From Anaerolineales bacterium (GTDB lineage Bacteria; Chloroflexota; Anaerolineae; Anaerolineales; Villigracilaceae): a stretch of DNA of 64,000 bases. The notes under the pieces were generated by a model that worked only from the letters and a program-made list of their open reading frames with translations, was not told the origin of the DNA and searched no databases. Every line of letters starts with the position of its first letter. Position 1 is the first letter of the stretch. The position numbers and the translations under genes were made by a program. The stretch is from assembly GCA_049578465.1 (NCBI GenBank), contig JBAUMB010000055.1, forward strand, positions 18,085 through 82,084, read 5' to 3'. Shown here one piece after another: positions 13,858 to 30,671 of the stretch.

Positions 13858-14814
13858 ATGACCATCTCCCTAATTATTCCTGTTTATAACGAAGAAGAAA
13901 ATCTATCCGTTCTCTTCGACGCGGTCATCAAGGCTATGACGCCGTTGAAAAAACCGTGGGAGGTGATCTTTGTCAATGACGGGAGCACAGACGGAAGTCT
14001 CGAAGTGTTGAGGGAATTGGCTAAAAAAGATAAACACGTTCGTGTAATTGTTTTTCGTCGCAACTTTGGACAAACCGCGGCGATCTCAGCCGGTATTGAT
14101 CATGCCAAAGGAGAAGCCATCGTTTTGCTGGATGCCGATCTCCAAAACGATCCCGCCGATATCCCAATGTTATTATCCAAACTCGAAGAGGGCTACGATG
14201 TAGTCAGCGGCTGGCGCAAGGATCGAAAAGACAATGCCATCACGCGCACTCTGCCTTCGATGATGGCGAACGGTTTGATCTCGTGGGTGACCGGCGTCCA
14301 TCTGCATGATTATGGCTGTACGCTTAAAGCATATCGCCGCGAAGTATTGGACGAATTTCGGTTGTATGGCGAGACCCATCGTTTCATCCCCGTCTTTGCT
14401 CATTCGGTGGGGGCACGCATCGTAGAACTACCAGTTCATCATCATCCGCGCCTTCATGGAAAAGCAAAATATGGTTTGGAGCGGACCATGAAGGTGGTGC
14501 TCGATCTGTTCACTGTTAAATTCCTGCTGAGCTATGGAAACAAACCGATCCGCTTGTTTGGCGGCACCGGAATGGTATTGATGTTTGCAAGTTTTGTGAC
14601 CCTTATATATCTCTTTGTCCGTAAAATCATCGAAAGCACTTCCGTGACCGCCTCGCCACTTTTGCCGCTGGCCATCATGTTTTTGATCCTCGGGTTTCAA
14701 TCCATTCTCATGGGATTGATCGCAGAACTTCTGGTGCGCACCTATCATGAGTCTCAGCGCAAACCCACTTACACGGTAAGAGAAATTATTGAAGGTAGAA
14801 AGGAACGCAAATGA
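13858..14814 (+). CDS. GT2 polyprenyl-phosphate glycosyltransferase (GtrB/ArnC/DPM1-like)
   Basis: ISLIIPVYNEEENL, FVNDGSTDGS, VLLDADLQNDP, two C-terminal TMs; typical GtrB architecture. Confidence 0.85.
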   Translation: MTISLIIPVYNEEENLSVLFDAVIKAMTPLKKPWEVIFVNDGSTDGSLEVLRELAKKDKHVRVIVFRRNFGQTAAISAGIDHAKGEAIVLLDADLQNDPADIPMLLSKLEEGYDVVSGWRKDRKDNAITRTLPSMMANGLISWVTGVHLHDYGCTLKAYRREVLDEFRLYGETHRFIPVFAHSVGARIVELPVHHHPRLHGKAKYGLERTMKVVLDLFTVKFLLSYGNKPIRLFGGTGMVLMFASFVTLIYLFVRKIIESTSVTASPLLPLAIMFLILGFQSILMGLIAELLVRTYHESQRKPTYTVREIIEGRKERK

Positions 14815-15734
14815 CAGATTGGCTTTCAGACAATCGCCGCTTCCTTCTTCGGTTTGTGGGAACCTTGCTCGCCATCGGCTTGATCGTTTTCCTCTTTCGA
14901 GGTCAGGGCTGGGACGAGATCGTCACGGCGTTTAAACAAATTTCGTTTTCGCAAATTCTGCTTGCGTTCGTGTTGATTCTGCTTTCACGCTTTTGTGTCG
15001 TCCTGCGCTGGTACATTTTGCTGCGTGCCGGAAATGTCAAGATTTCCTTTTCCGATGCGCTCGCGCTGACCTTTACAGGCTTGTTCTCTTCAAACTTTTT
15101 GCCAACGACGATTGGCGGCGACGTGGTTCGATTGGCTGGTGCGATGCAGATGGGATACGACCGTGCTGTCAGCCTCGCTTCCTTGGTCGCGGACCGATTG
15201 ATTGGTGCCCTTGCAATGATCTTCACCGTACCTTTTGGCTTGATCCCGGCATGGCATATCCTGGCGTCAGCGTCTTCCGCATCAGCGATGGCTGTACCAG
15301 CTATCTTTCAAAAGACATGGGATTTCATCAAACGGACCTTGCAGACGTTTTCGATTTGGTTTAAGAATCCGCTGGCTTTATTCGCGGCGCTCGCTTGCAC
15401 GTGGGGACATGTGCTCTGCACCTGCCTGGCTCTTGCTGTTTTGATTTCTGCGCTAGGCGAACACATGTCTTTTTGGCTCATCGTCGGCTTATGGAGCATC
15501 TCTTATTTTGTTACGCTCATTCCGATTTCCATCAATGGATATGGCGTGCAGGAACTCTCATTAACCTTTTTGTTTTCCAGGGTAGGCGGAATTAGCCCAG
15601 CCGCGGGTCTGACATTGGCTGTTATGATCCGTGTTTTCTACATGGTAGCCAGTTTGCCGGGAGCAGTGTATCTGCCTGCCATTCTGTCTGCCATGGATCT
15701 TGATCGCGAACCCGAATCTAAAAACGAATTATGA
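14811..15734 (+). CDS. UPF0104 / lysyl-PG-synthase-TM-region family 'flippase-like' membrane protein
   Basis: 307 aa, about 8 TMs, FLPTTIGGDVVR motif typical of this family, ATGA overlap with the GT2 gene. Confidence 0.7.
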   Translation: MTDWLSDNRRFLLRFVGTLLAIGLIVFLFRGQGWDEIVTAFKQISFSQILLAFVLILLSRFCVVLRWYILLRAGNVKISFSDALALTFTGLFSSNFLPTTIGGDVVRLAGAMQMGYDRAVSLASLVADRLIGALAMIFTVPFGLIPAWHILASASSASAMAVPAIFQKTWDFIKRTLQTFSIWFKNPLALFAALACTWGHVLCTCLALAVLISALGEHMSFWLIVGLWSISYFVTLIPISINGYGVQELSLTFLFSRVGGISPAAGLTLAVMIRVFYMVASLPGAVYLPAILSAMDLDREPESKNEL

Positions 15735-17698
15735 AACCGATCTCATCGAAGACATTTTGGCAGACCTATCTTGGCTTCGGATTTTTTATCGGCCTCTTTG
15801 CGCTGTATCAGACTTTCACTCATGTTGCTACAATGGATGTGTCCATCTGGCATTCCAAATGGACGATTTTGCTTCTTGGATTCATCGTCACAATTGTTGG
15901 AAGCGCATTATTAAATTATGGTTTGCAAGCCGGTAGAGCAGAGAAATTCTTTGAGCGGCTTGAAAATATAAAGCTGAATAGTGCGTGGCGCTGGCTAATA
16001 TTCCTTCCCTTAATTGCGGTTGCTTTCGTGCCTCCTTTTGTTAAGCTATTTATTTTCGGCAAAACTCTGCCTGAGTTTTTTCCATTGCTGTGGGTTTTCT
16101 GGTGGATATGTTTGTTGCAAATGGCTTCATGGAAACTGGCAACAAGGAATTCGTGGGCGGCGTCTTTTGCATCGGTTGTTTTGATTCAAGTTGTTGCCTA
16201 TCAAGTTTATGCAAATCTACAGGTTATCACCACGGATCCGTTTTCCATTGATTATTCCGAGACCAGCCGCTTTTATTATGGTTCCTTGTGGTTAAGTCAA
16301 TCTCTCTATGGAATGAAAGCGCCGCTTTCTCCGTGGCACGCCACGCGATATATTCTGATGGCGATTCCGTTTTTGATTCGCGGACTTCCGCTCTGGGCGC
16401 ATCGACTCTGGCAAGCGCTTTTTTTATGGATAGGAATCACCAGCCTTTCATCATGGCTTCTTGTGCGTCGTTTGCATCTCGGTAATAAAGCATTGGCATG
16501 GTTAGTTGCATGTTGGAGCTTTGTCTATCTTTTGCAAGGTCCCGTTTATTATTATTTGCAAGTTTGTGTCATCATTATCCTGTGGGGCGTAGAAATAAAA
16601 CATCCTTGGCGATCATTGATCGCGGTGTTGGTCGCCTCGTTTTGGGCCGGGATGAGCGGCGTGAATTGGTATCCGGTTCCGGCGGCGTTGGCTGCGGCTT
16701 TAGTTCTGCTTGAACAACCGGTTTCTGAATCAAAAAATATTTGGCAATATTTGGTCAAGCCGTTGATGTGGGGCGTGCTCGGATTGGGCATCGCATTTGC
16801 GGGTCAGGCGTTTTATATTTTTATATCCGGTTATAAAGACCTCAGCCTATTTCATTCCAGTTTGACTTCGGCGCTGTTGTGGAATCGATTGCTTCCGAGC
16901 CCGGCGTTTCCGCTCGGAATTTTGCCGGGGATCATTTTGATTTCGCTTCCATTGTGGCTCGGACTTTGGTTTGCTCTGCGCGGCCGACTTAATCGTTTGC
17001 ATCCGATTCGCATGATCAGCTTGGGTTTGATATTGTTGGTTTTGTTCCTCGGATGTTTGGCGGTCAGCGTCAAGATCGGCGGCGGCGCGGACTTGCATGA
17101 TATGGATTCGTACGAAGTTCTTTTGCAAATCATCGCAGTTTATTTTTGTGCGAATCAAGTCCGTCCCGAATCTGGGAATGCGGAATGGGGAATAATACCT
17201 TGGCCGGTTCTTGTTCTCGTGATCATCATTCCGTTTGTTTTTCCGCTCGACTATGTTGGCAACTGGGTCAAGTATAACAACCGTCGAGCGCAAGCCGATA
17301 TCAAGACTTTGCAAGCCGCTGTCGCCCCAGCCGCGGCGCATGGAGGCGAAGTTCTTTTTATTTCGGAACGCCAATTGATCACGTTCGATTACATTCAAGG
17401 TGTGCCGCTTGTGCCGGATGATGAAATCGTGGAGTTGATGGAAATTGCGATGTCGAATAATCAGCCTGCACTTTCACAATTTTATTCCGATCTTCGTCAA
17501 CATCGTTTTGCATTGATCGTTTCCCGCAAGTTGAACACCAGCATCAAAACCGGCGAGGCGTTTTCCGAGGAGAACAATGCCTGGAGCCAAGACATCGCGG
17601 CTCCCATCCTGTGCGAATATCAACCGGTTCTAAGTTTGCAAAGCAATAACCTTCAGGTTTATGCTCCCAAGACCACTGGGACAGAATCTTGTCCATAA
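15731..17698 (+). CDS. large polytopic membrane protein with a C-terminal soluble domain, GT-C-like; paralogue A1 of 26255..28630
   Basis: 655 aa. Shares DPFSIDYSETSRFYYGSLW, LLWNRLLPSPAFPLGILPG, VKIGGGADLHDMDSY and a tail of about 130 aa (FSEENNAW...CEYQP) with the 791-aa protein. Confidence 0.55.
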   Translation: MKPISSKTFWQTYLGFGFFIGLFALYQTFTHVATMDVSIWHSKWTILLLGFIVTIVGSALLNYGLQAGRAEKFFERLENIKLNSAWRWLIFLPLIAVAFVPPFVKLFIFGKTLPEFFPLLWVFWWICLLQMASWKLATRNSWAASFASVVLIQVVAYQVYANLQVITTDPFSIDYSETSRFYYGSLWLSQSLYGMKAPLSPWHATRYILMAIPFLIRGLPLWAHRLWQALFLWIGITSLSSWLLVRRLHLGNKALAWLVACWSFVYLLQGPVYYYLQVCVIIILWGVEIKHPWRSLIAVLVASFWAGMSGVNWYPVPAALAAALVLLEQPVSESKNIWQYLVKPLMWGVLGLGIAFAGQAFYIFISGYKDLSLFHSSLTSALLWNRLLPSPAFPLGILPGIILISLPLWLGLWFALRGRLNRLHPIRMISLGLILLVLFLGCLAVSVKIGGGADLHDMDSYEVLLQIIAVYFCANQVRPESGNAEWGIIPWPVLVLVIIIPFVFPLDYVGNWVKYNNRRAQADIKTLQAAVAPAAAHGGEVLFISERQLITFDYIQGVPLVPDDEIVELMEIAMSNNQPALSQFYSDLRQHRFALIVSRKLNTSIKTGEAFSEENNAWSQDIAAPILCEYQPVLSLQSNNLQVYAPKTTGTESCP

Positions 17699-17718
17699 TA
17701 TTACTCTAGAGGCCCATA

Positions 17719-18426
17719 GTGAAACGTTCTGGTGAATATGCCGATCGCGGAGATTATCATGTCCATCTGAGAAAAGACTGGCCGTATTTGCCGGTCTATC
17801 TTGAGAAGATGAGACTCGCGCATAAATTTTTGGATGAATGCGGCAAGCGCGCGTCCATCTATGATATGGGTTGCGGCGAGGGCGTGCTGGTCAATGAATA
17901 CCGCGAAAGGGGTTATCAGGTCACCGGCATGGATTTGAATTATTCATCCCAATACATTGTTCAGAGAAGTTTTCTCGAAACGGGTTTAGCCGACGAATCG
18001 GTTGATGTGCTGATGTGCCTCGATGTGCTGGAACACCTTCCGTATTGGGATCAGGAACGCGCGGTCACTGAATTCGCGCGGATTTTAAAGCCGGGCGCCA
18101 AAGCGCTGATCACGGTTCCGAATCTGGCGCATCTCGCCTCACGCATCTCTTTCTTCTTTTCCGGCAAGCTGGTGCGCACCTCTAGCATTGACCGCCATCC
18201 CGGCGACCGTCCCATCATCGAGTATGTGAAGATGTTCGAAAAGCATTTCCACATTCGTTGGCGCAAAGGAATCTTTCCAACTTTTCCGATGCTTTCGGTG
18301 CTGACCGTGATCATGCCGTCTAATGTCATCGGCTTGCACAGACTCTACAATCGTTTGATCGCTTATCCCAATTGGTGTTTCCTCAACGCGTTCTTGTTGG
18401 AAAAACCTGAAGAGCCTCATTCTTAA
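17719..18426 (+). CDS. class I SAM-dependent methyltransferase
   Basis: Motif I IYDMGCGEGVL, acidic post-I GMDLN, LMCLDVLEHLP, LKPGAKALITVPN; GTG start. Confidence 0.8.
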   Translation: MKRSGEYADRGDYHVHLRKDWPYLPVYLEKMRLAHKFLDECGKRASIYDMGCGEGVLVNEYRERGYQVTGMDLNYSSQYIVQRSFLETGLADESVDVLMCLDVLEHLPYWDQERAVTEFARILKPGAKALITVPNLAHLASRISFFFSGKLVRTSSIDRHPGDRPIIEYVKMFEKHFHIRWRKGIFPTFPMLSVLTVIMPSNVIGLHRLYNRLIAYPNWCFLNAFLLEKPEEPHS

Positions 18427-18430
18427 TCCG

Positions 18431-19561
18431 ATGAAAATCCTGTTGATCAATAGCGAATATCCTCCAATCGGCGGCGGCGCGGGCAATGCCAGCTCAAATA
18501 TTGCGCGGGTGCTTGCTCAACGAGGTCATAATGTTTTGGTTCTGACTTCACGTTGGAATGATTTGCCTTTTGAAGAGACGCGCGCTGGAGTAAAAATTAT
18601 TCGTTTGTCCACACTGCGCCGCAAGATGGATCGCTCCAACGCGCTCGAACAAATTTCATTTATCTTCGGCGCTTCTTTCCGGACCTTTGGCTTGGTCCGT
18701 CAATTCAAGCCGGATGTTACTTTGGCTTTTTTCGGCTTGCCTTCAGGCGCAGTCGGTTTGCTTTTGAAGTGGCTTTATCGGATCCCCTATGTTATTTCTT
18801 TGCGCGGCGGAGATGTGCCCGGCTTTCGTCCTTATGATTTTCGCATTTACCATAAATTGTCCGCGCCGTTTTTACATCTAATTTGGAAAAACGCCTTTTC
18901 GATTATTGCCAATAGTCAGGGCTTACGGGACCTTGCACTGGCTTTTGATGCGCGTTATGAGATTTCGGTTATTCCCAACGGCGTGGATGTGAATCAATTT
19001 GAAATATCCCGCCGCGATTGGTCATCGCCGCGTATCCTATCCGTTGGACGCGTGGTCTATCAAAAAGGATTTGATCTCGCAATGCGTGCCTTGTCCCGGT
19101 TGAAAGATTCAGAATGGACATGGACGATTGCCGGTGATGGCCCGCAAACCGAAACGTTAAAGGCAATGTCGGAAGAGTATGGTATAAACGAACGCATCCG
19201 CTTTATGGGTTGGCTTTCAACAGAACAACTCAAGGAGCAGTATGCCGCGGCGACGCTGTTTTTATTTCCATCAAGAGATGAGGGCATGCCGAATGCAATC
19301 TTGGAAGCGATGGCAAGCGGATTGCCGGTTGTCGCAACGAAAATCGCAGGCAATGAAGAATTGGTCCTGGATGGCGAAACGGGAAAACTTGTCCCGACGG
19401 AGGATGTGGAGTCGCTTCGAGAATCGCTGGGACCATTCCTGGGCGATGCGAAGATGCGGGAACAAATGGGGAATGCCGCGCATCAAAGAGTCGAATCGTC
19501 ATTTAGTTGGAATCGAGTTACGGAACATTATGAGTTAATCTTAGAAAAGGCGGTGAAATAA
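18431..19561 (+). CDS. glycosyltransferase family 4
   Basis: MKILLINSEYPPIGGGAG..., FLFPSRDEGMPNAILEAMASGLPVVAT (E-x7-E). Confidence 0.85.
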   Translation: MKILLINSEYPPIGGGAGNASSNIARVLAQRGHNVLVLTSRWNDLPFEETRAGVKIIRLSTLRRKMDRSNALEQISFIFGASFRTFGLVRQFKPDVTLAFFGLPSGAVGLLLKWLYRIPYVISLRGGDVPGFRPYDFRIYHKLSAPFLHLIWKNAFSIIANSQGLRDLALAFDARYEISVIPNGVDVNQFEISRRDWSSPRILSVGRVVYQKGFDLAMRALSRLKDSEWTWTIAGDGPQTETLKAMSEEYGINERIRFMGWLSTEQLKEQYAAATLFLFPSRDEGMPNAILEAMASGLPVVATKIAGNEELVLDGETGKLVPTEDVESLRESLGPFLGDAKMREQMGNAAHQRVESSFSWNRVTEHYELILEKAVK

Positions 19562-21447
19562 TGTGCGGTATTTGCGGATTATCTTATTCAAACAATCGCC
19601 TGGGTGATCGTGAAGTTTTAGAAAAAATGAATGCGGCGATTCGTCATCGCGGACCCGATAGCGATGGTTTTTATGTGGCGCAGGGCGTTGGGCTTGCGGT
19701 GCGGCGGCTTGCCATTATCGATGTGAAGGGCGGCGACCAGCCGATCGCAAACGAAGATGGATCGATCCAGATCGTCTTTAATGGCGAATGTTATAACTAT
19801 CCTGAGATGCGTGTGGAACTCGAACGCCGCGGCCATCGTTTTTCGACAAAGACGGATACGGAATGTATTGTCCATTTTTATGAAGATGAGGGCGATGATT
19901 GTGTAAAACGCTTGCGTGGCATGTTTGCCTTTGCATTATGGGACATGCGTAAACGCCGTTTATTGATCGCACGCGACCGCCTTGGCAAGAAACCCATCTA
20001 TTACACGATTCAAAATGGCGAGTTATATTTTTGCGCCGAGTTGAACGGCCTGCTCAAGGCCTTGCCGCATCGTCCCGAAATTGATCTTGAAGCAATTGAT
20101 TTATATTTGAGCTTACAATATGTTCCCGAACCGCGCACGGTTTATCAGGATATTTATAAACTCCCAGCCGCGCATACGTTGGTTTGGGAAAATGGACAGG
20201 CGAAGCTTAATCGTTATTGGGATTATTCGTATCAACCCAAATGGACCGGTAACGAAAACGATCTCGCAGAGGAATTGCGCCTCCGTTTGCGCGAGGCGGT
20301 CAAAATGCGCCTCATCAGCGAAGTGCCGCTCGGCGCGCATTTGAGCGGCGGACTCGATTCGAGCATCGTCGTGGCGCTCATGGCGGAGTTGAGCGACGCG
20401 CCGGTCAAAACATTCTCAGTCGGTTTTCAGGAAGAAGAATTTTCCGAACTGTCTTATGCGCGTGCGGTCGCGCAAAAATATTCCACTGACCATCACGAAT
20501 TCACGTTGACCTATGGCGATATTCCTGCAACGTTGGAAAAGATCATCTGTCATTTCGGCGAACCATTTGCAGATGCTTCGGCAATTCCGCTTTATCATCT
20601 TTCACTGCTGACGCGTCAATATGTGACGGTCGCATTGAACGGCGATGGCGGCGATGAGGATTTCGCGGGGTATCAGCGCTACTGGCTTGATCCATTTGCC
20701 AACAAGTATTTGCAGGCGCCTCCATTCTTGACGCGAAATTTAGTTCCGTCCATCGCGCATCATCTCCCCGATCATTCCACACGACCGACCGGTCAAAGCT
20801 TCGTCAACGGATTGAAACGTCTCGAACAACTTCCGCGCGTGGATCGCCGTGCCAGCATTTTGCGTTGGGGTTCGTACTTCGCTCCGTGGCAGAGACAACA
20901 GCTTTGGAAGGAAGAGCATTGGAAAAATTTCCGCGCCGATAACGCCGAATCTTTATTGGCCGAATCTTTTGATAAAGCTGACGGTTCTTTCCTCGACCGG
21001 ACGCTTTATACCGATTTGCATAATTATTTGCCCGGTGATTTGTTGGTCAAAGCGGATCGCATGACGATGGCTGCGTCGCTCGAAGGGCGTTCGCCGTTTC
21101 TCGATCAAGAAATCGTGGAGTGGTCCGCGCGTTTGCCGGATTCGCTCAAAGTTCGCGGCCGAAGCGGAAAATATTTATTGAAGAAAGCTTTCGCGAATGA
21201 TTTGCCGGAGAACGTTCGGTCGCACGGCAAACAGGGATTCGGGATCCCGTTGGCGGCTTGGTTCCGCGGTCCGCTTGCGGATTGGTCGCGCGAATTATTG
21301 CTCGGTGTTGAAAGCCCTTTGAGCGGTTTATTCAATCAACCTGCGTTACAGAATCTCATTAATGAGCATACACAAGCCCGCGCCGATCATGGCAAACGTC
21401 TTTATGCGCTTAGCATGCTGGCGTTGTGGATGAACAATATCAATTAA
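19561..21447 (+). CDS. asparagine synthase (glutamine-hydrolysing) family amidotransferase, AsnB/WbpS-like
   Basis: N-terminal MCGICG (Ntn Cys2), SGGLDSS PP-loop, 628 aa. Confidence 0.9.
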   Translation: MCGICGLSYSNNRLGDREVLEKMNAAIRHRGPDSDGFYVAQGVGLAVRRLAIIDVKGGDQPIANEDGSIQIVFNGECYNYPEMRVELERRGHRFSTKTDTECIVHFYEDEGDDCVKRLRGMFAFALWDMRKRRLLIARDRLGKKPIYYTIQNGELYFCAELNGLLKALPHRPEIDLEAIDLYLSLQYVPEPRTVYQDIYKLPAAHTLVWENGQAKLNRYWDYSYQPKWTGNENDLAEELRLRLREAVKMRLISEVPLGAHLSGGLDSSIVVALMAELSDAPVKTFSVGFQEEEFSELSYARAVAQKYSTDHHEFTLTYGDIPATLEKIICHFGEPFADASAIPLYHLSLLTRQYVTVALNGDGGDEDFAGYQRYWLDPFANKYLQAPPFLTRNLVPSIAHHLPDHSTRPTGQSFVNGLKRLEQLPRVDRRASILRWGSYFAPWQRQQLWKEEHWKNFRADNAESLLAESFDKADGSFLDRTLYTDLHNYLPGDLLVKADRMTMAASLEGRSPFLDQEIVEWSARLPDSLKVRGRSGKYLLKKAFANDLPENVRSHGKQGFGIPLAAWFRGPLADWSRELLLGVESPLSGLFNQPALQNLINEHTQARADHGKRLYALSMLALWMNNIN

Positions 21448-21462
21448 ATAGATCACACTTGG

Positions 21463-22569
21463 TTAAATTAATTTTGAAATTGTGCTGAGTGCGGTCTGAA
21501 CGGTCTTTTCCCAAGTAAAATTGTTCGCCTGTGCGAAACCTTTGAGCCGCAGGGAATCTCGCAGAGTGGAATCGCCCGCCATTTTTATCATTCCATCGGC
21601 TATGGATTGTTGGGAATAGGCATCTACAATCAGAGCTGCATCGCCGGTAATTTCCGGCAAGGAAGTTTGGTTGGAAGCCAGCACAGGTGAGCCGCACTGA
21701 AATGCTTCCAAGACCGGCAACCCTAAGCCTTCAAACAGCGAAGGATAAACTGTGAACTGCGCCAAGGAGTAGATTGACGCCATGTCAGCGAGCGGGACTT
21801 TGCCAAGCTGGTGAACGCGTGCAGCAATCGATCCCTTCAACCGGCTGATTACATCATCTGTATTCCAGGCGACGCTTCCGGTGAAATATAAATGATGCGG
21901 TATCCGATCCTGAATCATTTCGAATGCATCCAGCAGGCGATTAAAGTTTTTGCGTGGTGAAATATTGGTGGGGAAAAAGATGAAGGGCTCACTTAATTGA
22001 TAGCGCGTCCGCACTTCACTCAGGGTGTTTGCATCACTCACGGGTTGATAAACCTTTGATGCTGCGCCATAGATGTTCACCACCTTTTCTGGCTGAACGT
22101 TCAATAGCCGGATGACATCCTGTCGAGTATGCTCGGAAATGGTGAAGACCGCCGCTGCGTTGTGAGCGGAGAACGGCATCGCTCGTCGCATATATAAGGT
22201 ATCCAGTTTCTTGTACGGGTTGAGATTAGTGTAAAAATATCCCAAATCAAGCATAATGGGGATGGCGATACAGGAAAGCCGAACTGATATCGTTCCCTTG
22301 GGAAAAATAACAAGGGAGATTTGATCTCTCTTCACCTGTTGCGGAAGCAAGACATGATCCCAAAAGAAAGTATTTAGCCCAGGGATGACCCGTTCAATCG
22401 CTTGTTCGAATAGTCCCAGCGGTTCGGGACTGTTATAATAAACGTGTATCTCATAATCACGGGCTTGACGGATTAATTCGCGTGTGAAGCCTTCCGTATA
22501 TGAATTTGGACCGCTAAATACTTTGCCAAGTCCGCGAGCAGAAATTCCGATTTTTGGTTTTGTAGTCAT
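21463..22569 (-). CDS. glycosyltransferase family 4
   Basis: YPSLFEGLGLPVLEAFQCGSPVLASN (E-x7-E) in the C-terminal half. One of only three minus-strand genes in the island. Confidence 0.8.
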   Translation of the reverse strand: MTTKPKIGISARGLGKVFSGPNSYTEGFTRELIRQARDYEIHVYYNSPEPLGLFEQAIERVIPGLNTFFWDHVLLPQQVKRDQISLVIFPKGTISVRLSCIAIPIMLDLGYFYTNLNPYKKLDTLYMRRAMPFSAHNAAAVFTISEHTRQDVIRLLNVQPEKVVNIYGAASKVYQPVSDANTLSEVRTRYQLSEPFIFFPTNISPRKNFNRLLDAFEMIQDRIPHHLYFTGSVAWNTDDVISRLKGSIAARVHQLGKVPLADMASIYSLAQFTVYPSLFEGLGLPVLEAFQCGSPVLASNQTSLPEITGDAALIVDAYSQQSIADGMIKMAGDSTLRDSLRLKGFAQANNFTWEKTVQTALSTISKLI

Positions 22570-22598
22570 TGAGCAATTTTGAAGAGGAATATCATAAA

Positions 22599-23294
22599 AT
22601 GTCAGAAGACAAAGATGCTTATCCTTTCCTTCCCATGTTTTCGATGCAGATAAGCCGATATGCGTATCAAATCCCTTATTTTTATCAAAGATGGATTCGT
22701 CCTGAGAGAACCTTTATCTTTTGCGGCAAACCATATAAGTATTTTCTCCATCCGTATAATACCACATGGCGGAATGAACGTTGCGTTGAGCTGGCGATTG
22801 TGATGGAATATCTAAGAAATCAAAATCCTGCCGATATCCTAGAAGTGGGCAATGTTCTTTCTCATTACGTTCGTTCCGCGCATACTGTGATTGATCGATA
22901 TGAAAGAGGCAGAAGTGTTATTGCCCAAGATATTGTCGATTATCAAAGTAATCAATCTTATCAGCTCGTGATATGTATATCTACACTTGAGCATATCGGG
23001 TTTGATGAAAGACCGCAAAATCCTGGAAAATATAAGCAAGCGATCCAAGTCATGCGTTCCATGCTCACTCGAGGTGGAAAATTGATCGTAACTGTTCCGC
23101 TTGGCTATAATCCTGCCATCGATTCGGATTTAGAAGCGGGTATCTTGCCCTTTGACGAGATACATTTCCTAAAGCGCACTTCATATGAAACATGGCTGGA
23201 GACGCAGTGGAATGATGTTAAAGATGTGGCTTACGGGACTCCATTTAGGGCCGCCAACGCGATTGCAGTTTGTGTTGGCGGGCCGGTGTTGTAG
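22599..23294 (+). CDS. methyltransferase-fold protein with a degenerate SAM motif I
   Basis: ILEVGNVLSHY replaces GxGxG. LVICISTLEHIGFDE and GGKLIVTVP are Methyltransf_11-like. The ORF track starts at TTG 22569, but ATG 22599 preceded by GAAGAGGAA is the more plausible start. Confidence 0.5.
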   Translation: MSEDKDAYPFLPMFSMQISRYAYQIPYFYQRWIRPERTFIFCGKPYKYFLHPYNTTWRNERCVELAIVMEYLRNQNPADILEVGNVLSHYVRSAHTVIDRYERGRSVIAQDIVDYQSNQSYQLVICISTLEHIGFDERPQNPGKYKQAIQVMRSMLTRGGKLIVTVPLGYNPAIDSDLEAGILPFDEIHFLKRTSYETWLETQWNDVKDVAYGTPFRAANAIAVCVGGPVL

Positions 23295-23318
23295 TAGATT
23301 CTTGGTCAGCGAGGAAAA

Positions 23319-24020
23319 ATGCCGTTTTACGAAAACTTTACAATGAAGAATCCTACTTCATTCGGCACGAAGATGGCGGCTAAAGAGGCGGATAACGTCT
23401 TAAAGGCAATCATAAGCCACCGTTCAAAAGTCGATTCAGTATTGGAATTAGGACCGGGACGCGGACCCTTTATGCGGGCATGCAAGCTTCGAGGCTTGGA
23501 TTATACATGCGCTGATATTTCGTGGACCGCATTGCGTAATTTATCCGGCGTAGAAAAAAGAGTCCAAACGCTCGTGCCGCCTCTGCCTTTTGCTTCCCAA
23601 GCTTTTGATATCGCGTTTGCCTCCAATGTCCTGGAGCACATGTTAGATTTTCGCCACGCCCTTTTATTGATAGAAGAAATGAAACGAACTGTGCGCCCCG
23701 GCGGATTAATTTGCCATCGTGTGCCCAACGCAATGGCTTGGGGATTGCATTTCTGGAATGGAGATTATACACATAGCTTTTTTACAACCCCGCGCACTGT
23801 TTCTCAGGTATATCTCGATGCTGGGCTGAATATCTTGGCTATTTATCCGGTTTCCGGTTTTTTGGTTGGTGCGTTGGCGAGACCCGCATCGCTTTTTGGT
23901 TATCTTGTCCCATCTTGGTTATTCGATCACGGGGCAAATCGTTCATCGCTTTCGCAAATGCTATACAGCGCAAAAACAACTCTCTTTTTAGGCTTTCTTA
24001 TCATTGGCCAGAAAAAATAA
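23319..24020 (+). CDS. class I SAM-dependent methyltransferase with a hydrophobic C-terminal tail
   Basis: VLELGPGRGPF motif I, CADIS, FDIAFASNVLEHM, VRPGGLI; C-terminal hydrophobic segments. Confidence 0.75.
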   Translation: MPFYENFTMKNPTSFGTKMAAKEADNVLKAIISHRSKVDSVLELGPGRGPFMRACKLRGLDYTCADISWTALRNLSGVEKRVQTLVPPLPFASQAFDIAFASNVLEHMLDFRHALLLIEEMKRTVRPGGLICHRVPNAMAWGLHFWNGDYTHSFFTTPRTVSQVYLDAGLNILAIYPVSGFLVGALARPASLFGYLVPSWLFDHGANRSSLSQMLYSAKTTLFLGFLIIGQKK

Positions 24021-24243
24021 AGAATACAATTGCGATGGCTGGTCCGCCTTTCAGCCAAATTGAAGCTCATTCAAAGAATTTATAAATATTATTTCGGGTA
24101 TGCTAATGGCAAAGGCGGAGTTCTTCTTTTGGAAGCGATGAAGACAAGACGGTCTCGCTTAACGAGCTTCTCACTTTCCCATACAAATTGAGTTTTCTAC
24201 CACTGGTAAAATAACGAGATCAATAATAATCTTTGGAGTATCC

Positions 24244-25146
24244 ATGCAAGTGTATAATCTAAAATTGGATTTCATGGTGGTCGGAGCAGAAAGATGCGGA
24301 ACTACTTGGCTCGCGGATATGCTGCGTCAGCACCGGGATGTTTTTATCCCCGTGCAAAAAGAAATCCATTACTTCAATCGCAAGTTTGTGGATTTTCCCG
24401 ATATCGATAACTATAATTTCGATAAACCCATAGATTGGTATTGGCGGTTTTATGCTGAAGCAGCCGCGGGGCAAAAAAAGGGGGAGGTCTGTCCGTCTTA
24501 CCTCTGGGACATAGCGGCGCCTGAACGCATCCATGCATTCGACCCGGAAATAAAAATCATGGTCATGTTACGGAATCCTATTGAGCGGACTTTTTCAGCC
24601 TATCGATTTTGGATGCAGCGCGGAGTCGTGAGACCTATGCCGTTCCGGGAAGCTGTTAAGCGTTATTCGGATTTGCTTTTACAGCGAAGCATGTATTTTG
24701 ATCAACTAACGCGTTATTACAATTTTTTTCCCAAAGAACAAATCCGAGTGTGGTGTACAGATAGCTCCCCGGCGACTACGATGGTTTCATTTCTTAAGGA
24801 TGCGGAAGATTTTATTGGTGTACAGCAATTTGTGCCGGAAAATGCCTTATCGCGGTCTAATGTTACCAGTGTATCTCGCTTCTGGATTATCAGTTGGCTA
24901 ATGGCTCGATTTCGCCGTTTTCTCCGCCGCTATCGGGCATTCTCCTGGCCAGTCGATCTTTTGCGGAAGGTGAAGATTGCGGATCAGATGGAGTTCATGC
25001 GACGACGGAATATGACTGAGACCCTTCCTACGGAAATCTCGATGATGACAGAGCAGGATCGGATTTGGTTGACAAGTCTTTTGCAAAAAGATATTCAGAA
25101 TTTAGAAGCTTTACTAAAAATCGATCTAAGCGCTTGGAGGTCTTAA
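24244..25146 (+). CDS. sulfotransferase (PAPS-dependent)
   Basis: 5'-PSB-type loop VVGAERCGTTWLADML and 3'-PB-type LRNPIERTFSAYRF. Confidence 0.8.
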   Translation: MQVYNLKLDFMVVGAERCGTTWLADMLRQHRDVFIPVQKEIHYFNRKFVDFPDIDNYNFDKPIDWYWRFYAEAAAGQKKGEVCPSYLWDIAAPERIHAFDPEIKIMVMLRNPIERTFSAYRFWMQRGVVRPMPFREAVKRYSDLLLQRSMYFDQLTRYYNFFPKEQIRVWCTDSSPATTMVSFLKDAEDFIGVQQFVPENALSRSNVTSVSRFWIISWLMARFRRFLRRYRAFSWPVDLLRKVKIADQMEFMRRRNMTETLPTEISMMTEQDRIWLTSLLQKDIQNLEALLKIDLSAWRS

Positions 25147-25174
25147 AGGCTTTTTGTCCGGCTCATAAGTACAT

Positions 25175-26221
25175 ATGAAATTTCAAACTCTACGTCAGTT
25201 TTTCTCTTCCATGCATATCGGTGATAAATGGAAAGATGCTCTCAAGATTGCTCTAGCTTTGGCGCTCACAGGCTTCATCCTTTCAAAGACCAGTCTTCAT
25301 GACATCATCGCCCTTCGAGATATCATTTCCTGGCCGTGGCTCATTATCAGTCTGGTGGTATTTTTTGCAATGACTATTGTGAAAGCGGCGCAGTATTGGG
25401 CGCTATTCGATAGGCGATTTCCATATCCACAGGTATTAAGGGTCGTGACTTTGCAAAACGCCCTGACGAATCTTATTTCGAATGCGGCTGGGATTGCATC
25501 CTACCTGACCATGTTTCGCGTTGAACAAAAGGTCAAATTGAGATACTCTGGAACGATCTTCATCATCACAAAAGCCGGCGATCTGTTCTGCATGAGCTTC
25601 TTTCTCCTTCTTTCAACCTTGTGGGTGTGGACGCGAATTAATGTTTTGCGTGAACTCGTTATTCTTATCTTGATCGTGAGTTGTCTGGCACTACTTGCTT
25701 TTTGGACGGCTGTTTTTATGCGCCAGAAATTTATTCTTCAGTTGCAAAAAGTCATGCACTGGACGCGGCTCGACCGGGTTTCTATTTTAGAACGCGGCTT
25801 GAACATGCTTCAATCCGTGGCCGAACAGGAACAGCGAACGGTCATTCGCATGTTCCTGCTGGGTCTTCTGCTTTCGATGAGCTATATGTCTCTTACCATG
25901 GCATATAGTTACAGCAGGATTCAGACATTCCATATTCCGCTTGATTTATGGGCAATCATCTTCATTGCTTCATTGCTTCAATTTGTTTCTGTCATTCCCA
26001 TTCAGATTTTCGGAGGCCTTGGAGTTAACGAAGTTACCTTATTATATTTGTACGGCCTTTTTGGTATCGTTCAAGCGGATATTCCCGCAATTTTGGTGGC
26101 CTCGCGTGTATTGTTTTACTTGTTCAACCTTTCTCTTTTGCTTTATATTCCCATCGACACAATCACTGCCAGATTCAAACCCATCAAAAAAGAAGAAGTG
26201 GATAAGGTAAATGAAGCCTGA
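25175..26221 (+). CDS. UPF0104 / 'flippase-like' membrane protein (second copy)
   Basis: 348 aa, about 8 TMs, same overall layout as 14811..15734, again directly upstream of a GT-C-like paralogue. Confidence 0.65.
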   Translation: MKFQTLRQFFSSMHIGDKWKDALKIALALALTGFILSKTSLHDIIALRDIISWPWLIISLVVFFAMTIVKAAQYWALFDRRFPYPQVLRVVTLQNALTNLISNAAGIASYLTMFRVEQKVKLRYSGTIFIITKAGDLFCMSFFLLLSTLWVWTRINVLRELVILILIVSCLALLAFWTAVFMRQKFILQLQKVMHWTRLDRVSILERGLNMLQSVAEQEQRTVIRMFLLGLLLSMSYMSLTMAYSYSRIQTFHIPLDLWAIIFIASLLQFVSVIPIQIFGGLGVNEVTLLYLYGLFGIVQADIPAILVASRVLFYLFNLSLLLYIPIDTITARFKPIKKEEVDKVNEA

Positions 26222-26254
26222 TGACAATTTATTCATTGTCAAAAATTCTGCTAT

Positions 26255-28630
26255 TTGATTCTTAAAAAGGTCAAAATGATTCACAGCTCAAAACATACCT
26301 TTCGCTGGCTTTTATTGACAGGCTGGATAATTGCGGCTGGATCGGCCTCGATTGAAATTGTTAAGATTCCCCGCGCTCAAGTCGATTGGACGAGGGTTTT
26401 ATCTGCGACCGGCTTATTAACGCTTACGGCTTACGTTCTACTTTTAATTTTGGGCCTGGTTGCTTTTGTTTTTTATTTCCTCGGTTCGACAACTTTGAAT
26501 AGCTTAACGCAACAAGTTTCGCGTCCGCGTTGGATGCGCTGGCTGGCTGTCGCCGTATTAATTCTATCCGTTATCTGGTTTTATCTTTATTCGCCGCTGC
26601 AGGATGTGTTGAATGGTCCATGGTTACAGCTGATTTTTTCTTTCGGCTTGACGGCATGGATTGTTATGCTCATCTCGCCTCGCCGTCAGCTTTTCGGCGG
26701 CTGGGAGGAATTTATTTTTGCGGTCAGCTTGTTTCTCTTCCCGCGTATCGTTCAAGAATTGCGCGTTCTTTTTACACAAGCGTGGGTATATCGCCTCGCT
26801 GTATTGTTTGGTTATTTGATTATCATCGCTTTGGCCACGATTCTTTTTTCATCATATAACCAAAAGTTAATTAAAGGGCTGATGACATTTCGCGACCGGA
26901 TCGGCTGGACTCGTTGGGTCGTCATTGCCTTGGCTTTTTGTGGTCCCGCGCTCTTTTATATTTTTGCAGGCTCCAAGATTTATACTAGCAATCCAAATAT
27001 ACGTTTTCTTTTCCTGCTGATTGAACTGTTTTTAGTCTCCGTATTGCTCAATAAAAAAAGCGAACATTTGGTTTCTGCAAAAACAGTATTGATCAGTGTT
27101 TTTGCGCTCGCTCTAGTTTCTGTTTTGCTTACAATGTTATTGTCGGTAACCAATTATCCATTTTCTATGACTTGGTCGGAAGGCGACCGCTTCTACGAAG
27201 ACTCGCTGTTCTTCGGCCAGCATCTTTACAATTATTCAGGCTTCATTGTCAATCCTTATGCTTCGCCGGGCGCGTATCTGCCAACGTCAGTGTTCTTTCT
27301 CGTTCCGGGTTTATCGATCGGCTTATTCCGCCTGTGGAATGTATTGCTGTCGATCATTCCGCCAATCCTGATCGTATTGATTCTGGCGCCCAAGATTCGG
27401 AATCTTTATATTCGGATTGGCTTTGCCCTTTGGATGATGTTATTTTTTATTTTAGAAGCGCCTCTTCATCCGCCGTTTATGATTGCCGCCATTCTTGTAT
27501 TTGCGTTTATGTTTTCAGAATCCATTGTGGTTCGCGCAGTTTCGCTGGCCGTTGCTAGTTTCTATGTGGGACTCAGCCGCTGGACTTGGCTTCCAGTTAT
27601 AGCCGGCTGGGGAATTTTGATTGATCTGATTTTATATTATCCGCATCGCCGCGGACCTTTTATTCGCCGCGTAGCCCCGACTCTTTTTCTGGCGCTGGTT
27701 GGGCTTTTGCCCGGCCTCACCACAGTTTTTATAGCCCACCCCAATTTTGGAGGCGGAGCCAATTTGATCAATAATCAACCGTTGTTGTGGTATCGCCTGC
27801 TTCCCAACCCAACCCTTCCCCTAGGAATTCTCTTAACAGCCATTCTTTACAGCGGTCCCTTAGTCGCGGTTTTGATTTGGTGGATTGTCTCTCGACGTTG
27901 GCAATTGGACTGGTTGCAATTGCTGGCAATAGGAGCGGGCTTGGCGATCTTTTTCATCGGCGGTTTGGTGGTCAGCTCCAAGATCGGCGGCGGCGGCGAT
28001 CTTCATAATCTAGATATGTACCTGATGACGCTGGTGCTGATCTTTATGCTGGGTCTTTATAATTTTTTATCTTCCGATAATATCTCAGTGACTGGCTGGC
28101 CCGTTTGGATTCAAATCGCGTTATGTTTGGCCATTCTTCTTCCAATTTATTCGATAACCCCGCTTCCGCGCGATTCGGCTTATGATCCCAGTTTGGGTTT
28201 GCCCAGTCAGCAAGTCGCTCAACAAGAATTAACGGATATTAATAGCCATATCTCACACTCCAGCCAGCAGGGCTTGGTCTTGATGATGGATCAGCGTCAA
28301 CTGCTGACGTTTAACTATGTGAGTCGGATTCCGTTCGTACCGGATTACGAAAAAAAATATGTAATGGATCAGGCGATGGGCGGCAACGCGGCGTATTTCC
28401 AAAATTATTATCAAGACCTTGCCAAGAAACGTTTTAGTTTGATCGTCACGGAAGTGCTTCGATTGCGGCGTACCACCGGCGCCTTTTCGGATGAGAACAA
28501 CGATTGGGTCGATTGGGTCTCCAAGCCCACACTTTGTTTCTATCAGCCATTGGCAACCTACGATGATATCAATGTGCAATTGCTAATTCCGCGCCAGAAT
28601 ATATCCGATTGCCAGAAATATCTCAAATGA
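26255..28630 (+). CDS. large polytopic membrane protein with a C-terminal soluble domain, GT-C-like; paralogue A2 of 15731..17698
   Basis: YPFSMTWSEGDRFYEDSLF, LLWYRLLPNPTLPLGILLT, SKIGGGGDLHNLDMY, FSDENNDW...CFYQP. The track start is TTG 26255; ATG 26276 is an alternative. Confidence 0.55.
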   Translation: MILKKVKMIHSSKHTFRWLLLTGWIIAAGSASIEIVKIPRAQVDWTRVLSATGLLTLTAYVLLLILGLVAFVFYFLGSTTLNSLTQQVSRPRWMRWLAVAVLILSVIWFYLYSPLQDVLNGPWLQLIFSFGLTAWIVMLISPRRQLFGGWEEFIFAVSLFLFPRIVQELRVLFTQAWVYRLAVLFGYLIIIALATILFSSYNQKLIKGLMTFRDRIGWTRWVVIALAFCGPALFYIFAGSKIYTSNPNIRFLFLLIELFLVSVLLNKKSEHLVSAKTVLISVFALALVSVLLTMLLSVTNYPFSMTWSEGDRFYEDSLFFGQHLYNYSGFIVNPYASPGAYLPTSVFFLVPGLSIGLFRLWNVLLSIIPPILIVLILAPKIRNLYIRIGFALWMMLFFILEAPLHPPFMIAAILVFAFMFSESIVVRAVSLAVASFYVGLSRWTWLPVIAGWGILIDLILYYPHRRGPFIRRVAPTLFLALVGLLPGLTTVFIAHPNFGGGANLINNQPLLWYRLLPNPTLPLGILLTAILYSGPLVAVLIWWIVSRRWQLDWLQLLAIGAGLAIFFIGGLVVSSKIGGGGDLHNLDMYLMTLVLIFMLGLYNFLSSDNISVTGWPVWIQIALCLAILLPIYSITPLPRDSAYDPSLGLPSQQVAQQELTDINSHISHSSQQGLVLMMDQRQLLTFNYVSRIPFVPDYEKKYVMDQAMGGNAAYFQNYYQDLAKKRFSLIVTEVLRLRRTTGAFSDENNDWVDWVSKPTLCFYQPLATYDDINVQLLIPRQNISDCQKYLK

Positions 28631-28667: not shown

Positions 28668-30671
28668 ATGAAAACGCTGATGGATTTTGCTCCGTTGATA
28701 TTATGGGCTTTGCTCTGGATTAGCGGCGGATATCTGCTGACCGCCAGCTTGTTCCGCTTGCGACGCAGTGAAGCCGCGCTGATTGGATTGGGCATTGGGC
28801 TTGTCACCGAAACGTGGCTTGCCAATCTTTTGGCGCAAATGATTCCCGTTGTGATTGCATTCTGGCTTGCCGCAGTGTTGACTTTGATAGGCGGCTTGGT
28901 TGCGGTTTTCGTTTTGAAAAGAAAAAACATTAAGATCAATTTTTCTTTTTCGTTCAACCACTGGTTGATTCTTTTTTTGCTTACGATTCTTTTTATCTCC
29001 ATCGGGCGCGGACTGGCGCTCTTTGACGATTATCAAAACCTTCCGACCATCTCTCTGATGGCAACCGGCGACATCCCGCCGCATTTCGCGCTCGATCCGC
29101 ATTTCAGCTTTAACTATCATTACTTCCTTTTGTTATTCGCCACTCAATTCATGCGCCTCGGTTCGATGTTCCCATGGACCGCGCTCGATGTCTCACGCGG
29201 CTTGATCATTGCGTTGCCGCTGATGCTGGCGTGGCTGTGGGCGTATCGCATGACTCGCAATCGCATCGCCTCCGTTTTGACAAGCGTAATGCTGATGTTC
29301 GCAGGCGGAGCGCGCTGGCTGTTGTTATTATTGCCTCAGCCTATTTTGCAATTGATCTCGAATCAAATTACGCTAATCGGTTCTGCGGCTGAGACCGCAC
29401 CCGATCTGGTCCGCGCCATGCTTGCAAATTGGAAGATCGACGGCGATGGTCCTATCCCGTTTCCGTTTGCATTTCACAGCGGCATCTTTCAATCGTATGT
29501 GATGAACGGCTTTACCGGAATCTCCGGCATGGCTTTTATCATCGTTTTACTTTTGCTCCTCACTGCACAGCGTTGGCGCAATCCGTTTGCAGGCGTGATC
29601 ACATTCATTCTATTTTCTGCGTTGGCGTTGACAAATGAAGTGCTGTTCGGATTGATCGGGCTTGGTTTTATATTCGCGGTGATCGTTTGGATCATCACAC
29701 ATCGTTCGTTCAAATTACCCTCAAGTTTGATTCGTTGGGTTGCTGTTCTCGTGCCGGTTGGTTTAACGGCGCTGATTCAAGGTGGAGTGTTCACCGGGAT
29801 CGTGCGCGCCCGCTTCACGTCCGGACCCGGAAGCGGCGGTTCCTATTTCGACGCGACTCCTAATCTCGTCTGGCCTCCTTCAATCATCTCGGCTCATTTC
29901 GGCGCTTTATCTTTATTTAATCCCGCGCAATTGATCGTTGCATTGACAGAAATCGGGCCGATCATTCTTGCATTGCCATTGGTCATCATTTGGGGACGGA
30001 AAACGCTGCGCACACAGAACTGGTATGAAGCCGCATTGATCGGCACATTTGCATGGAGTGTGCCGTCGCTGTTTGTGGCGTTCAAAGGCCCGCTTTATAC
30101 AGCCACGCCGCGTTTGTTGGATGGACTCTTATTTGCCTGCACGCTTTATGCGGTTCCATTGTTTTGGATTTGGGCGCGCAAAAGAAGTGATGCTTTGCGA
30201 AGCGTTGTTGTTTTGGGCGGATTGGTAACAATCTTCGCGGGCTTGATGTTATTCGGCATTCAATTGATCTCGATTCAAAAGCCGGTGACCACCACATTCA
30301 TCAGCGATTTGGATGCGAAAGTGGCGGCTAAATATTGGAATAAATTAAAGCCTGGAAGCTTGGTGCTTGATCCATCAACTTATCAAGGTCCGACCATCTT
30401 TGGCCGTGCAACCGATTCTTCTGTCACATGGTATGCGCCCAAGCCGGAATGGCAGGCGTTGATTGCCAGCCCCGATCCGCATCAAATTTATGCGGAAGGC
30501 TATGACTACTTTTATTTTGGGATTGATTATTGGAATCAATTGACGCCGCAACAGCAAGCCGCGCTACAGCAACCATGCGTCAAGAAATTATATGAAGTGG
30601 ATGGCATTCACAGCCTAACGGATTATCGCAAAGATTTCCGCCGCCTGCTGGATGTTTCGGCGTGTAAATAA
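28668..30671 (+). CDS. large polytopic membrane protein, GT-C-like; paralogue B1 of 32173..34191
   Basis: 667 aa. ALFDDYQNLPTISLMATGDIPPHFALDP...YHYF...FPWTALDVSRG and C-terminal LLDVSACK match the 672-aa protein (GVGDDYAHFPLVSIIAAGDIPPHYSLNP...YHYA...FPWSAWDISRA...LIDITNCK). Confidence 0.55.
   Translation: MKTLMDFAPLILWALLWISGGYLLTASLFRLRRSEAALIGLGIGLVTETWLANLLAQMIPVVIAFWLAAVLTLIGGLVAVFVLKRKNIKINFSFSFNHWLILFLLTILFISIGRGLALFDDYQNLPTISLMATGDIPPHFALDPHFSFNYHYFLLLFATQFMRLGSMFPWTALDVSRGLIIALPLMLAWLWAYRMTRNRIASVLTSVMLMFAGGARWLLLLLPQPILQLISNQITLIGSAAETAPDLVRAMLANWKIDGDGPIPFPFAFHSGIFQSYVMNGFTGISGMAFIIVLLLLLTAQRWRNPFAGVITFILFSALALTNEVLFGLIGLGFIFAVIVWIITHRSFKLPSSLIRWVAVLVPVGLTALIQGGVFTGIVRARFTSGPGSGGSYFDATPNLVWPPSIISAHFGALSLFNPAQLIVALTEIGPIILALPLVIIWGRKTLRTQNWYEAALIGTFAWSVPSLFVAFKGPLYTATPRLLDGLLFACTLYAVPLFWIWARKRSDALRSVVVLGGLVTIFAGLMLFGIQLISIQKPVTTTFISDLDAKVAAKYWNKLKPGSLVLDPSTYQGPTIFGRATDSSVTWYAPKPEWQALIASPDPHQIYAEGYDYFYFGIDYWNQLTPQQQAALQQPCVKKLYEVDGIHSLTDYRKDFRRLLDVSACK

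Follow-up and report, generated by a model that had tools for sequence, protein, structure and literature searches.

In a 64,000-nt stretch of DNA from an Anaerolineales bacterium (Villigracilaceae; assembly GCA_049578465.1, contig JBAUMB010000055.1, positions 18,085 to 82,084 of the forward strand), here called the window, two genes encode paralogous membrane proteins of an unnamed Anaerolineales family. We predict, with a probability of about 0.7, that the proteins of this family are integral membrane glycosyltransferases of the glycosyltransferase-C (GT-C) fold, which act in a three-component extracytoplasmic glycosylation module of synthase, translocator and transferase. The novelty of the family lies in its sequence alone; the fold and the likely mechanism are familiar ones.

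Homology, predicted fold and conserved residues

Paralogue 1 (P0001) is encoded at 15731–17698 and has 655 amino acids (aa), and paralogue 2 (P0002/P0126) is encoded at 26276–28630, both on the + strand. The two sequences gave a single collinear BLASTP alignment of 659 columns with 27% identity and 47% positives (E 1e-50), a resemblance far above chance, and as judged from this alignment they are homologous end to end. They share a block in the first extracytoplasmic loop (aa 169–187 in paralogue 1, 301–319 in paralogue 2), an LLW.RLLP block (382–400 and 510–528), a KIGGG.DLH block (445–461 and 573–589) and a C-terminal tail block that runs in both proteins from ERQL/QRQL to C.YQP. The first-pass annotation of this DNA, which had proposed two paralogues with collinear motif blocks, was borne out: both open reading frames (ORFs) lie where it had placed them on the + strand, with all four blocks present and in order, although its label 'giant' is too generous for proteins of 655 and 784 aa. 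It had also considered the DNA too diverged for a recent duplication. This agrees with the survival of only two short patches of nucleotide similarity (72 and 50 bp, 76% identity), which lie under the KIGGG and LLW motifs, and with the two deep clades in the tree described below.

Translation of paralogue 2 probably begins at the ATG at 26276, giving 784 aa, rather than at the TTG at 26255 (791 aa), which would place the start in the ORF track 21 nt too early, because the database record of this very protein is 784 aa long, as are several of its closest orthologues. The source genome contains exactly two copies of the family.

What kind of protein is this? AlphaFold2 models built on family alignments had a predicted local distance difference test score (pLDDT) of 91.3 and a predicted template modelling score (pTM) of 0.91 for paralogue 1, and of 87.8 and 0.87 for paralogue 2 (784 aa). 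When paralogue 1 was searched with Foldseek, the first 30 PDB rows were all GT-C enzymes (STT3, AglB, PglB, AftA, AftD, DPY19, ArnT, ALG12, PimE and Emb), and the structure matches of both models were GT-C enzymes and essentially nothing else. The best match was ArnT, not an oligosaccharyltransferase (OST) or a protein mannosyltransferase (PMT). In these searches the modelled helical core of the polytopic proteins matched solved GT-C enzymes, with moderate Z-values for helical membrane proteins. The matched region starts at residues 133–160 of paralogue 1 and 256–290 of paralogue 2, and the ArnT alignment reaches residue 648 of paralogue 1. Outside the family, the nearest structure cluster of the ESM Atlas was a Chloroflexota group with PMT_2 in 19% of its members (TM 0.58/0.75), and one cluster of the family itself was auto-named RgtA/B/C/D-like. 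As the matches are exclusively GT-C, extend from core helix 1 through the C-terminal domain and agree across three search methods, we consider the predicted GT-C fold to be secure.

Sequence profiles did not lead to a named family. Pfam and NCBIfam scans of both paralogues (E ≤ 1) gave nothing meaningful, the sole match being OSTbeta at E 0.19, and a Pfam scan of 43 aligned members at the same threshold gave scattered chance matches with no GT-C model among them. The models for PMT_2 (PF13231), GT39 PMT (PF02366), YfhO (PF09586) and STT3 (PF02516) matched neither paralogue and none of the 43 members (E ≤ 1). A genome-wide search with PF13231 found nine other loci in the source genome, and neither family gene was among them. 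The family profile matched two PDB sequences by chance at E > 1, neither of them a GT-C enzyme, and when the family was compared by hhalign with 24 local PMT_2 proteins of relatives, the probability was a non-significant 21%. A language-model atlas search returned only unnamed Chloroflexota clusters; one PMT_2-bearing cluster scored 0.93 with few shared features and is a lead only. The first-pass annotation had not recognised the family and had thought it possibly undescribed, and the Pfam, NCBIfam, PDB-sequence and hhalign searches do not place it confidently in GT39, GT83 or YfhO. A kinship to the neighbouring membrane proteins P0003 (weak PMT_2 match) and P0004 (a member of pair B, below) was also considered and was rejected, with hhalign probabilities of only 0.2–0.3%. 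As a separate observation, these bacteria have a strongly expanded set of PMT_2-type GT-C genes: the source genome has 9 matches, and relatives within the order have as many as 27.

The models divide paralogue 1 into three parts (helix boundaries are those of the AlphaFold2 models; features are on the + strand; conservation refers to an alignment of 301 family members in paralogue 1 numbering). The N-terminal part is a four-helix membrane bundle (aa 1–138, 15731–16144; helices 6–34, 44–67, 84–109 and 116–138), which lies outside the GT-C match and itself gave only weak, unrelated helical-bundle matches. This region is longer in paralogue 2, at about 255–270 aa, with eight or nine extra helices (the helix parity is inconsistent). 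The GT-C core follows with 11 helices (aa 142–508), and its first outer loop (aa 164–220) is long and contains two juxtamembrane helices, as in GT-C enzymes. The motif PF....SE..R.Y..SL (aa 169–187, 16235–16291) is found in this loop, 6–24 residues past core helix 142–163, and is highly conserved (P170 98%, S176 98%, E177 99%, R180 97%); Glu177 is 14 residues past the same helix, at the start of a juxtamembrane helix. The LLW.RLLP.P..P.G loop (aa 382–400, 16874–16930) connects core helices 7 and 8 on the predicted outer face and is non-helical in the model from 380 to 396 (R386 and G396 100%, P389 99%). The S.KIGGG.DLH..D loop (aa 445–461, 17063–17113), between core helices 9 and 10, is predicted on the same face, with S446, K448, G450, G452, H456 and D459 all at 100% and G451 present in 300 of the 301 members. 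Further residues conserved at 99–100% are Arg225 and Trp227, at the start of core helix 2, and Trp313 in loop 3, where Ser309 reaches 97%. The C-terminal part is a predicted extracytoplasmic alpha/beta domain (aa 509–655, 17255–17695; strands 540–543, 593–599, 630–636 and 641–646, plus helices) with a probable disulfide between C628 and C654 and with its own conserved positions (R547 99%, E565 99%, E614 100%, Y630 100%).

By helix order, all polar residues conserved at 99–100% are in loops on the side of the C-terminal domain. The density of Lys and Arg in short loops is 0.18 per residue inside compared to 0.07 outside, and the tail cysteines co-vary: both are present in 249 members, neither in 41, and one alone in 11. 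This positive-inside count and the co-varying pair support an extracytoplasmic position for the modelled conserved loops and C-terminal domain, which would place the predicted active site where ArnT, PMT and STT3 have theirs, at the outer membrane boundary. The data fit what the motifs had suggested at first reading, namely that they look catalytic or structural (the blocks are the most conserved columns over the 301 members), that a cysteine-containing soluble domain ends the protein, and that both the tail and the KIGGG motif are positioned outside the membrane.

Gene coupling and family distribution

Paralogue 1 is the last gene of a triad. The first gene (13858–14814, + strand), two genes upstream, encodes a GT2 glycosyltransferase (Pfam Glycos_transf_2, E 1.5e-39) that matches both solved ArnC (E 1e-62, residues 3–311) and Synechocystis GtrB sll0501 (E 1e-43) over its full length, and also matches the NCBIfam ArnC and PgfS models, below their own cut-offs. 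From this homology it is a predicted polyprenyl-phosphate sugar synthase. The second gene (14811–15734, + strand) encodes a UPF0104/LPG_synthase_TM protein, a homologue of the MprF flippase domain (Pfam PF03706, E 1.2e-35; NCBIfam TIGR00374 'flippase-like domain' and MprF) and a candidate flippase for lipid-linked sugars. ATGA overlaps join GT2 to UPF0104 (14811–14814) and UPF0104 to paralogue 1 (15731–15734), and on the evidence of these overlaps the triad is translationally coupled. No small flippase of the GtrA, SMR (small multidrug resistance) or Wzx/MATE (multidrug and toxic compound extrusion) type is encoded between the GT2 gene and paralogue 1. The UPF0104 protein occupies that slot and may replace such a dedicated flippase. 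Taken with the predicted topology, this context of coupled ArnC/GtrB-like and flippase-like genes suggests that the donor at the outer face may be a lipid-phosphate sugar.

This arrangement is conserved. Full 2.5-kb flanks were available for 62 of the 80 best orthologous loci, each from a distinct species, and in all 62 a UPF0104 gene is found at most 2.5 kb upstream of the family gene (directly upstream in at least 57). An ArnC-like GT2 gene lies upstream on the same strand in 60/62, and the complete order GT2–UPF0104–family gene is kept in at least 56/62. One genus that does not have the family (g7; loci L156 and L157 in G175:C7 and G226:C12) provides a natural deletion: its syntenic locus keeps a 70% identical GT2 and the upstream membrane protein (644–663 aa), and the UPF0104 and family genes are both gone. 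As both are missing together from an otherwise syntenic locus, UPF0104 and the GT-C protein behave as a unit. A complex prediction for paralogue 1 with its UPF0104 neighbour scored 0.00, below the mark, a value that counts neither for nor against binding.

Paralogue 2 also has a UPF0104/LPG_synthase_TM gene directly upstream (25175–26221, + strand; Pfam PF03706, E 1.5e-16), whose product is 30% identical to the first over 90 aa, and a UPF0104 gene is upstream in 4/4 members of its own subclade. A methyltransferase–GT2 fusion is encoded nearby (30673–32100, − strand; Pfam methyltransferase and Glycos_transf_2), with a GT2 half that is AglJ/DPM1-like (NCBIfam AglJ, E 1e-26, and dolichyl-phosphate hexose transferase). 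Its orthologues are found within 5 kb of paralogue 2-type genes at five loci (L019, L023, L029, L034 and L036), and at 71–76% identity the fusion is far better conserved across genomes than the surrounding GT-C genes (31–48%). From its sequence and position the fusion may be a second lipid-phosphate sugar synthase serving paralogue 2, and its product may be a second, possibly methylated, lipid-linked sugar.

The family is large and, by present evidence from sequence searches, found in Anaerolineales only. A word-indexed search gave more than 614 relatives for paralogue 1 and 49 for paralogue 2; these are unnamed or 'hypothetical protein', they lack precomputed Pfam domains, and any organism named by the source is Anaerolineales, Anaerolineae or Chloroflexi. 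Of the clusters at 50% identity, the family profile (A1, built from the 43 aligned members) matched 1,204 at E ≤ 1e-3 and 800 at the stricter E ≤ 1e-30. In a survey of 301 Chloroflexota genomes, the source genome included, the family was present in 23/27 other genomes of the same order (17/19 in taxonomic family f1 and 6/8 in f2) and was not found in any of the 273 remaining sampled Chloroflexota genomes outside the order. The pattern KIGGG[GAN][DN][LI]H occurred in at least 598 stretches over 185,579 species genomes, and 579 of the stretches were confirmed as relatives. The top 80 came from metagenome-assembled genomes (MAGs) of Chloroflexota/Anaerolineae/Anaerolineales, including Candidatus Villigracilis species, and one record was titled only 'bacterium'.

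A maximum-likelihood tree of 40 members resolved a paralogue 1-type and a paralogue 2-type clade with 100% support in the approximate likelihood-ratio test (aLRT). Each of these deep clades contains members of both f1 and f2, and we therefore read the tree to mean that the duplication preceded the divergence of the two sampled taxonomic families of the order. Two metagenomic members carry additional domains: in P0211 (985 aa) the GT-C module is followed by a C-terminal alpha/beta-hydrolase domain (Abhydrolase_1, E 2e-6), and P0235 (1313 aa) is a fusion of this family with a pair-B-type protein. Both architectures were seen only once, and either may have arisen from an error in gene calling.

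The paralogues are surrounded by 60 kb of a cell-surface glycan island, which encodes a UDP-sugar dehydrogenase, epimerases, a GDP-mannose dehydratase, Wzx, Wzm/Wzt, several GT4s, an AsnB-type amidotransferase, sulfo- and methyltransferases and NeuB. It holds at least two GT-C/UPF0104 pairs and four more large polytopic proteins. Two of these, pair B (28668–30671 and 32173–34191, + strand; 667 and 672 aa), are paralogues of each other (32% identical, E 1e-109); they have no Pfam or NCBIfam match, hhalign gives no link to the present family, and in other genomes their genes are often downstream of family genes. The other two (8693–10303, 536 aa, without an assigned family, and 11401–13782, 793 aa, with a weak PMT_2 match of 29 bits; both + strand) flank the GDP-mannose dehydratase gene and are syntenic in relatives. 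The 793-aa protein may share the donor of the ArnC-like GT2, since its gene comes directly before it. A further ORF (22569–23294, + strand, 241 aa), between GT4 and methyltransferase genes and ahead of the second UPF0104/GT-C pair, has no Pfam or NCBIfam match.

Proposed mechanism and alternatives

In the module that we propose, the GT2 enzyme (13858–14814) would take one sugar from a nucleotide sugar and attach it to polyprenyl phosphate at the cytoplasmic face, the UPF0104 protein (14811–15734) would carry the lipid-phosphate sugar to the outer leaflet, and paralogue 1 would pass the sugar on to an extracytoplasmic acceptor. This acceptor would most likely be the polysaccharide that the locus makes and that its Wzm/Wzt or Wzx system exports. 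Within the predicted active site, Glu177 in the first outer loop could act as a general base or metal ligand, Arg225, Arg386 and Lys448 could bind the lipid phosphate, and His456/Asp459 could form a further part of the site. The disulfide-stabilised C-terminal domain (Arg547, Glu565, Glu614, Tyr630) could help to hold the acceptor. Paralogue 2 would do the same job with its own UPF0104 partner (25175–26221) for a different linkage, sugar or acceptor site, and its donor could come from the same GT2 or from the methyltransferase–GT2 fusion.

Could these proteins instead glycosylate proteins? In that case an S-layer or sheath protein would receive a lipid-carried sugar or glycan, by O-glycosylation of the PMT-like kind or by N-glycosylation of the STT3/AglB-like kind. 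Characteristic OST motifs are WWDYG and DK/MI, and the tail motifs observed here (ERQL/QRQL..TF, F.EENN.W and C.Y.P) do not contain them, although no search was aimed at those motifs. The preference for ArnT over OST and PMT in the structure searches, the position of the genes in a polysaccharide locus that encodes Wzm/Wzt and Wzx exporters, and the lack of an obvious target protein gene adjacent to them all argue in the same direction, and we regard protein glycosylation as improbable. Processive polymerases or ligases acting on lipid-linked glycans (Wzy/WaaL-like, or with Emb/Aft-like chain extension), as opposed to single-sugar decorators, are very improbable in our estimate. The first-pass annotation had offered a glycosyltransferase or polymerase family; the glycosyltransferase half of this is supported by the predicted fold, both models matching GT-C enzymes, and the polymerase half is not favoured.

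GT-C-like proteins need not be enzymes: PIG-U in the glycosylphosphatidylinositol (GPI) transamidase is a non-catalytic example. Members of the family could likewise bind lipid as scaffolds or be obligate partners of the UPF0104 translocator, and their pathway might be a glycolipid rather than a polyprenol one. Yet the outer loops and soluble domain bring together invariant residues (Glu, Arg, Lys, His and Asp) in a manner typical of an active site, and the GT2 is ArnC/GtrB-like over its full length and not of the diacylglycerol glycosyltransferase type, which leaves the non-catalytic reading with a very small share of the probability, the smallest that we assign.

Several points weigh against the catalytic three-component module that we prefer. 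The Pfam, NCBIfam and hhalign scans gave no sequence-profile bridge to any GT-C family, and 13/19 paralogue 2-type genes in the tree have no adjacent UPF0104 gene. The GT2 is not dedicated to the family, since it persists in genus g7 where the family is missing, and it probably serves another transferase too. Glu177 is no more than a candidate counterpart of the catalytic Asp/Glu of ArnT, PMT and STT3. Finally, UPF0104 proteins have also been tied to glycolipid pathways (HexSDF, PMC10128005; GpgSDF, PMC12713373), and by analogy with these a lipid acceptor or donor other than polyprenol is possible.

A bolder version of the three-component module is that the family is a catalytically distinct GT-C lineage that founds a new CAZy family and forms an obligate two-gene unit with UPF0104, in which the N-terminal bundle docks the translocator for direct hand-over of the lipid-linked sugar. 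We consider this doubtful; if true, it would offer the first tractable system in which the flipping of polyprenyl-phosphate sugars by UPF0104 proteins could be shown.

Significance and comparison with known systems

Anaerolineales are abundant filamentous bacteria of wastewater, soils and sediments, and to our knowledge almost nothing has been established about their envelope chemistry. Candidatus Villigracilis is among the Anaerolineales whose MAG records carry the family. Naming about 1,200 clusters, in which all named members are 'hypothetical protein', as GT-C with defined motifs would give better annotation of a conserved envelope-glycan locus, and the conserved positions are concrete targets for mutagenesis. 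The near-universal pairing with UPF0104 adds bacterial comparative evidence on the open question of who flips lipid-phosphate sugars. As a new sequence family inside a well-known kind of enzyme and pathway logic, it leaves the accepted view of such systems unchanged and will not surprise a specialist; its chief use is in annotation and in the comparative argument for UPF0104 as a lipid-sugar flippase.

The closest structural relative is ArnT (GT83, PDB 5F15/5EZM), which works with ArnC and ArnE/F. The family shares 9–12% sequence identity with ArnT and differs from it in having no PMT_2 or other Pfam match, in its extra N-terminal helices (4 in paralogue 1, about 8–9 in paralogue 2) and in a motif set of its own (SE in loop 1, LLW.RLLP and KIGGG.DLH..D). 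The putative flippase is UPF0104 in place of the SMR-type ArnE/F, and lipid A is an unlikely acceptor here because the host belongs to the Chloroflexota and the genes to a polysaccharide locus. The PMT_2 (PF13231, RgtA/B/C/D-like) proteins of the same genomes are likewise GT-C enzymes, and they differ from the family in matching PF13231.

Three-component systems include GtrB/GtrA/Gtr*, ArnC/ArnEF/ArnT, CsbB/GtcA/YfhO, GacI/GacK/GacL and the GT136 pentofuranose systems (PMC11127046, PMC8035078). As in these, a GT2 synthase, a membrane translocator and a GT-C protein are co-encoded here in a glycan locus with an ABC (ATP-binding cassette) or Wzx exporter. In contrast to them, the translocator candidate is MprF/UPF0104 rather than GtrA, Wzx/MATE or SMR, and the GT-C protein belongs to no named family. 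A similar neighbourhood was predicted in archaea, where UPF0104 (arCOG00899), proposed to be a flippase, is found with an AglD-like GT2 and a PMT-STT3-like protein (arCOG00563; Makarova et al. 2015, PMC5898192). The three kinds of protein are the same as those described here; however, the present module is bacterial and translationally coupled, is kept in at least 56/62 loci and uses a different GT-C sequence family.

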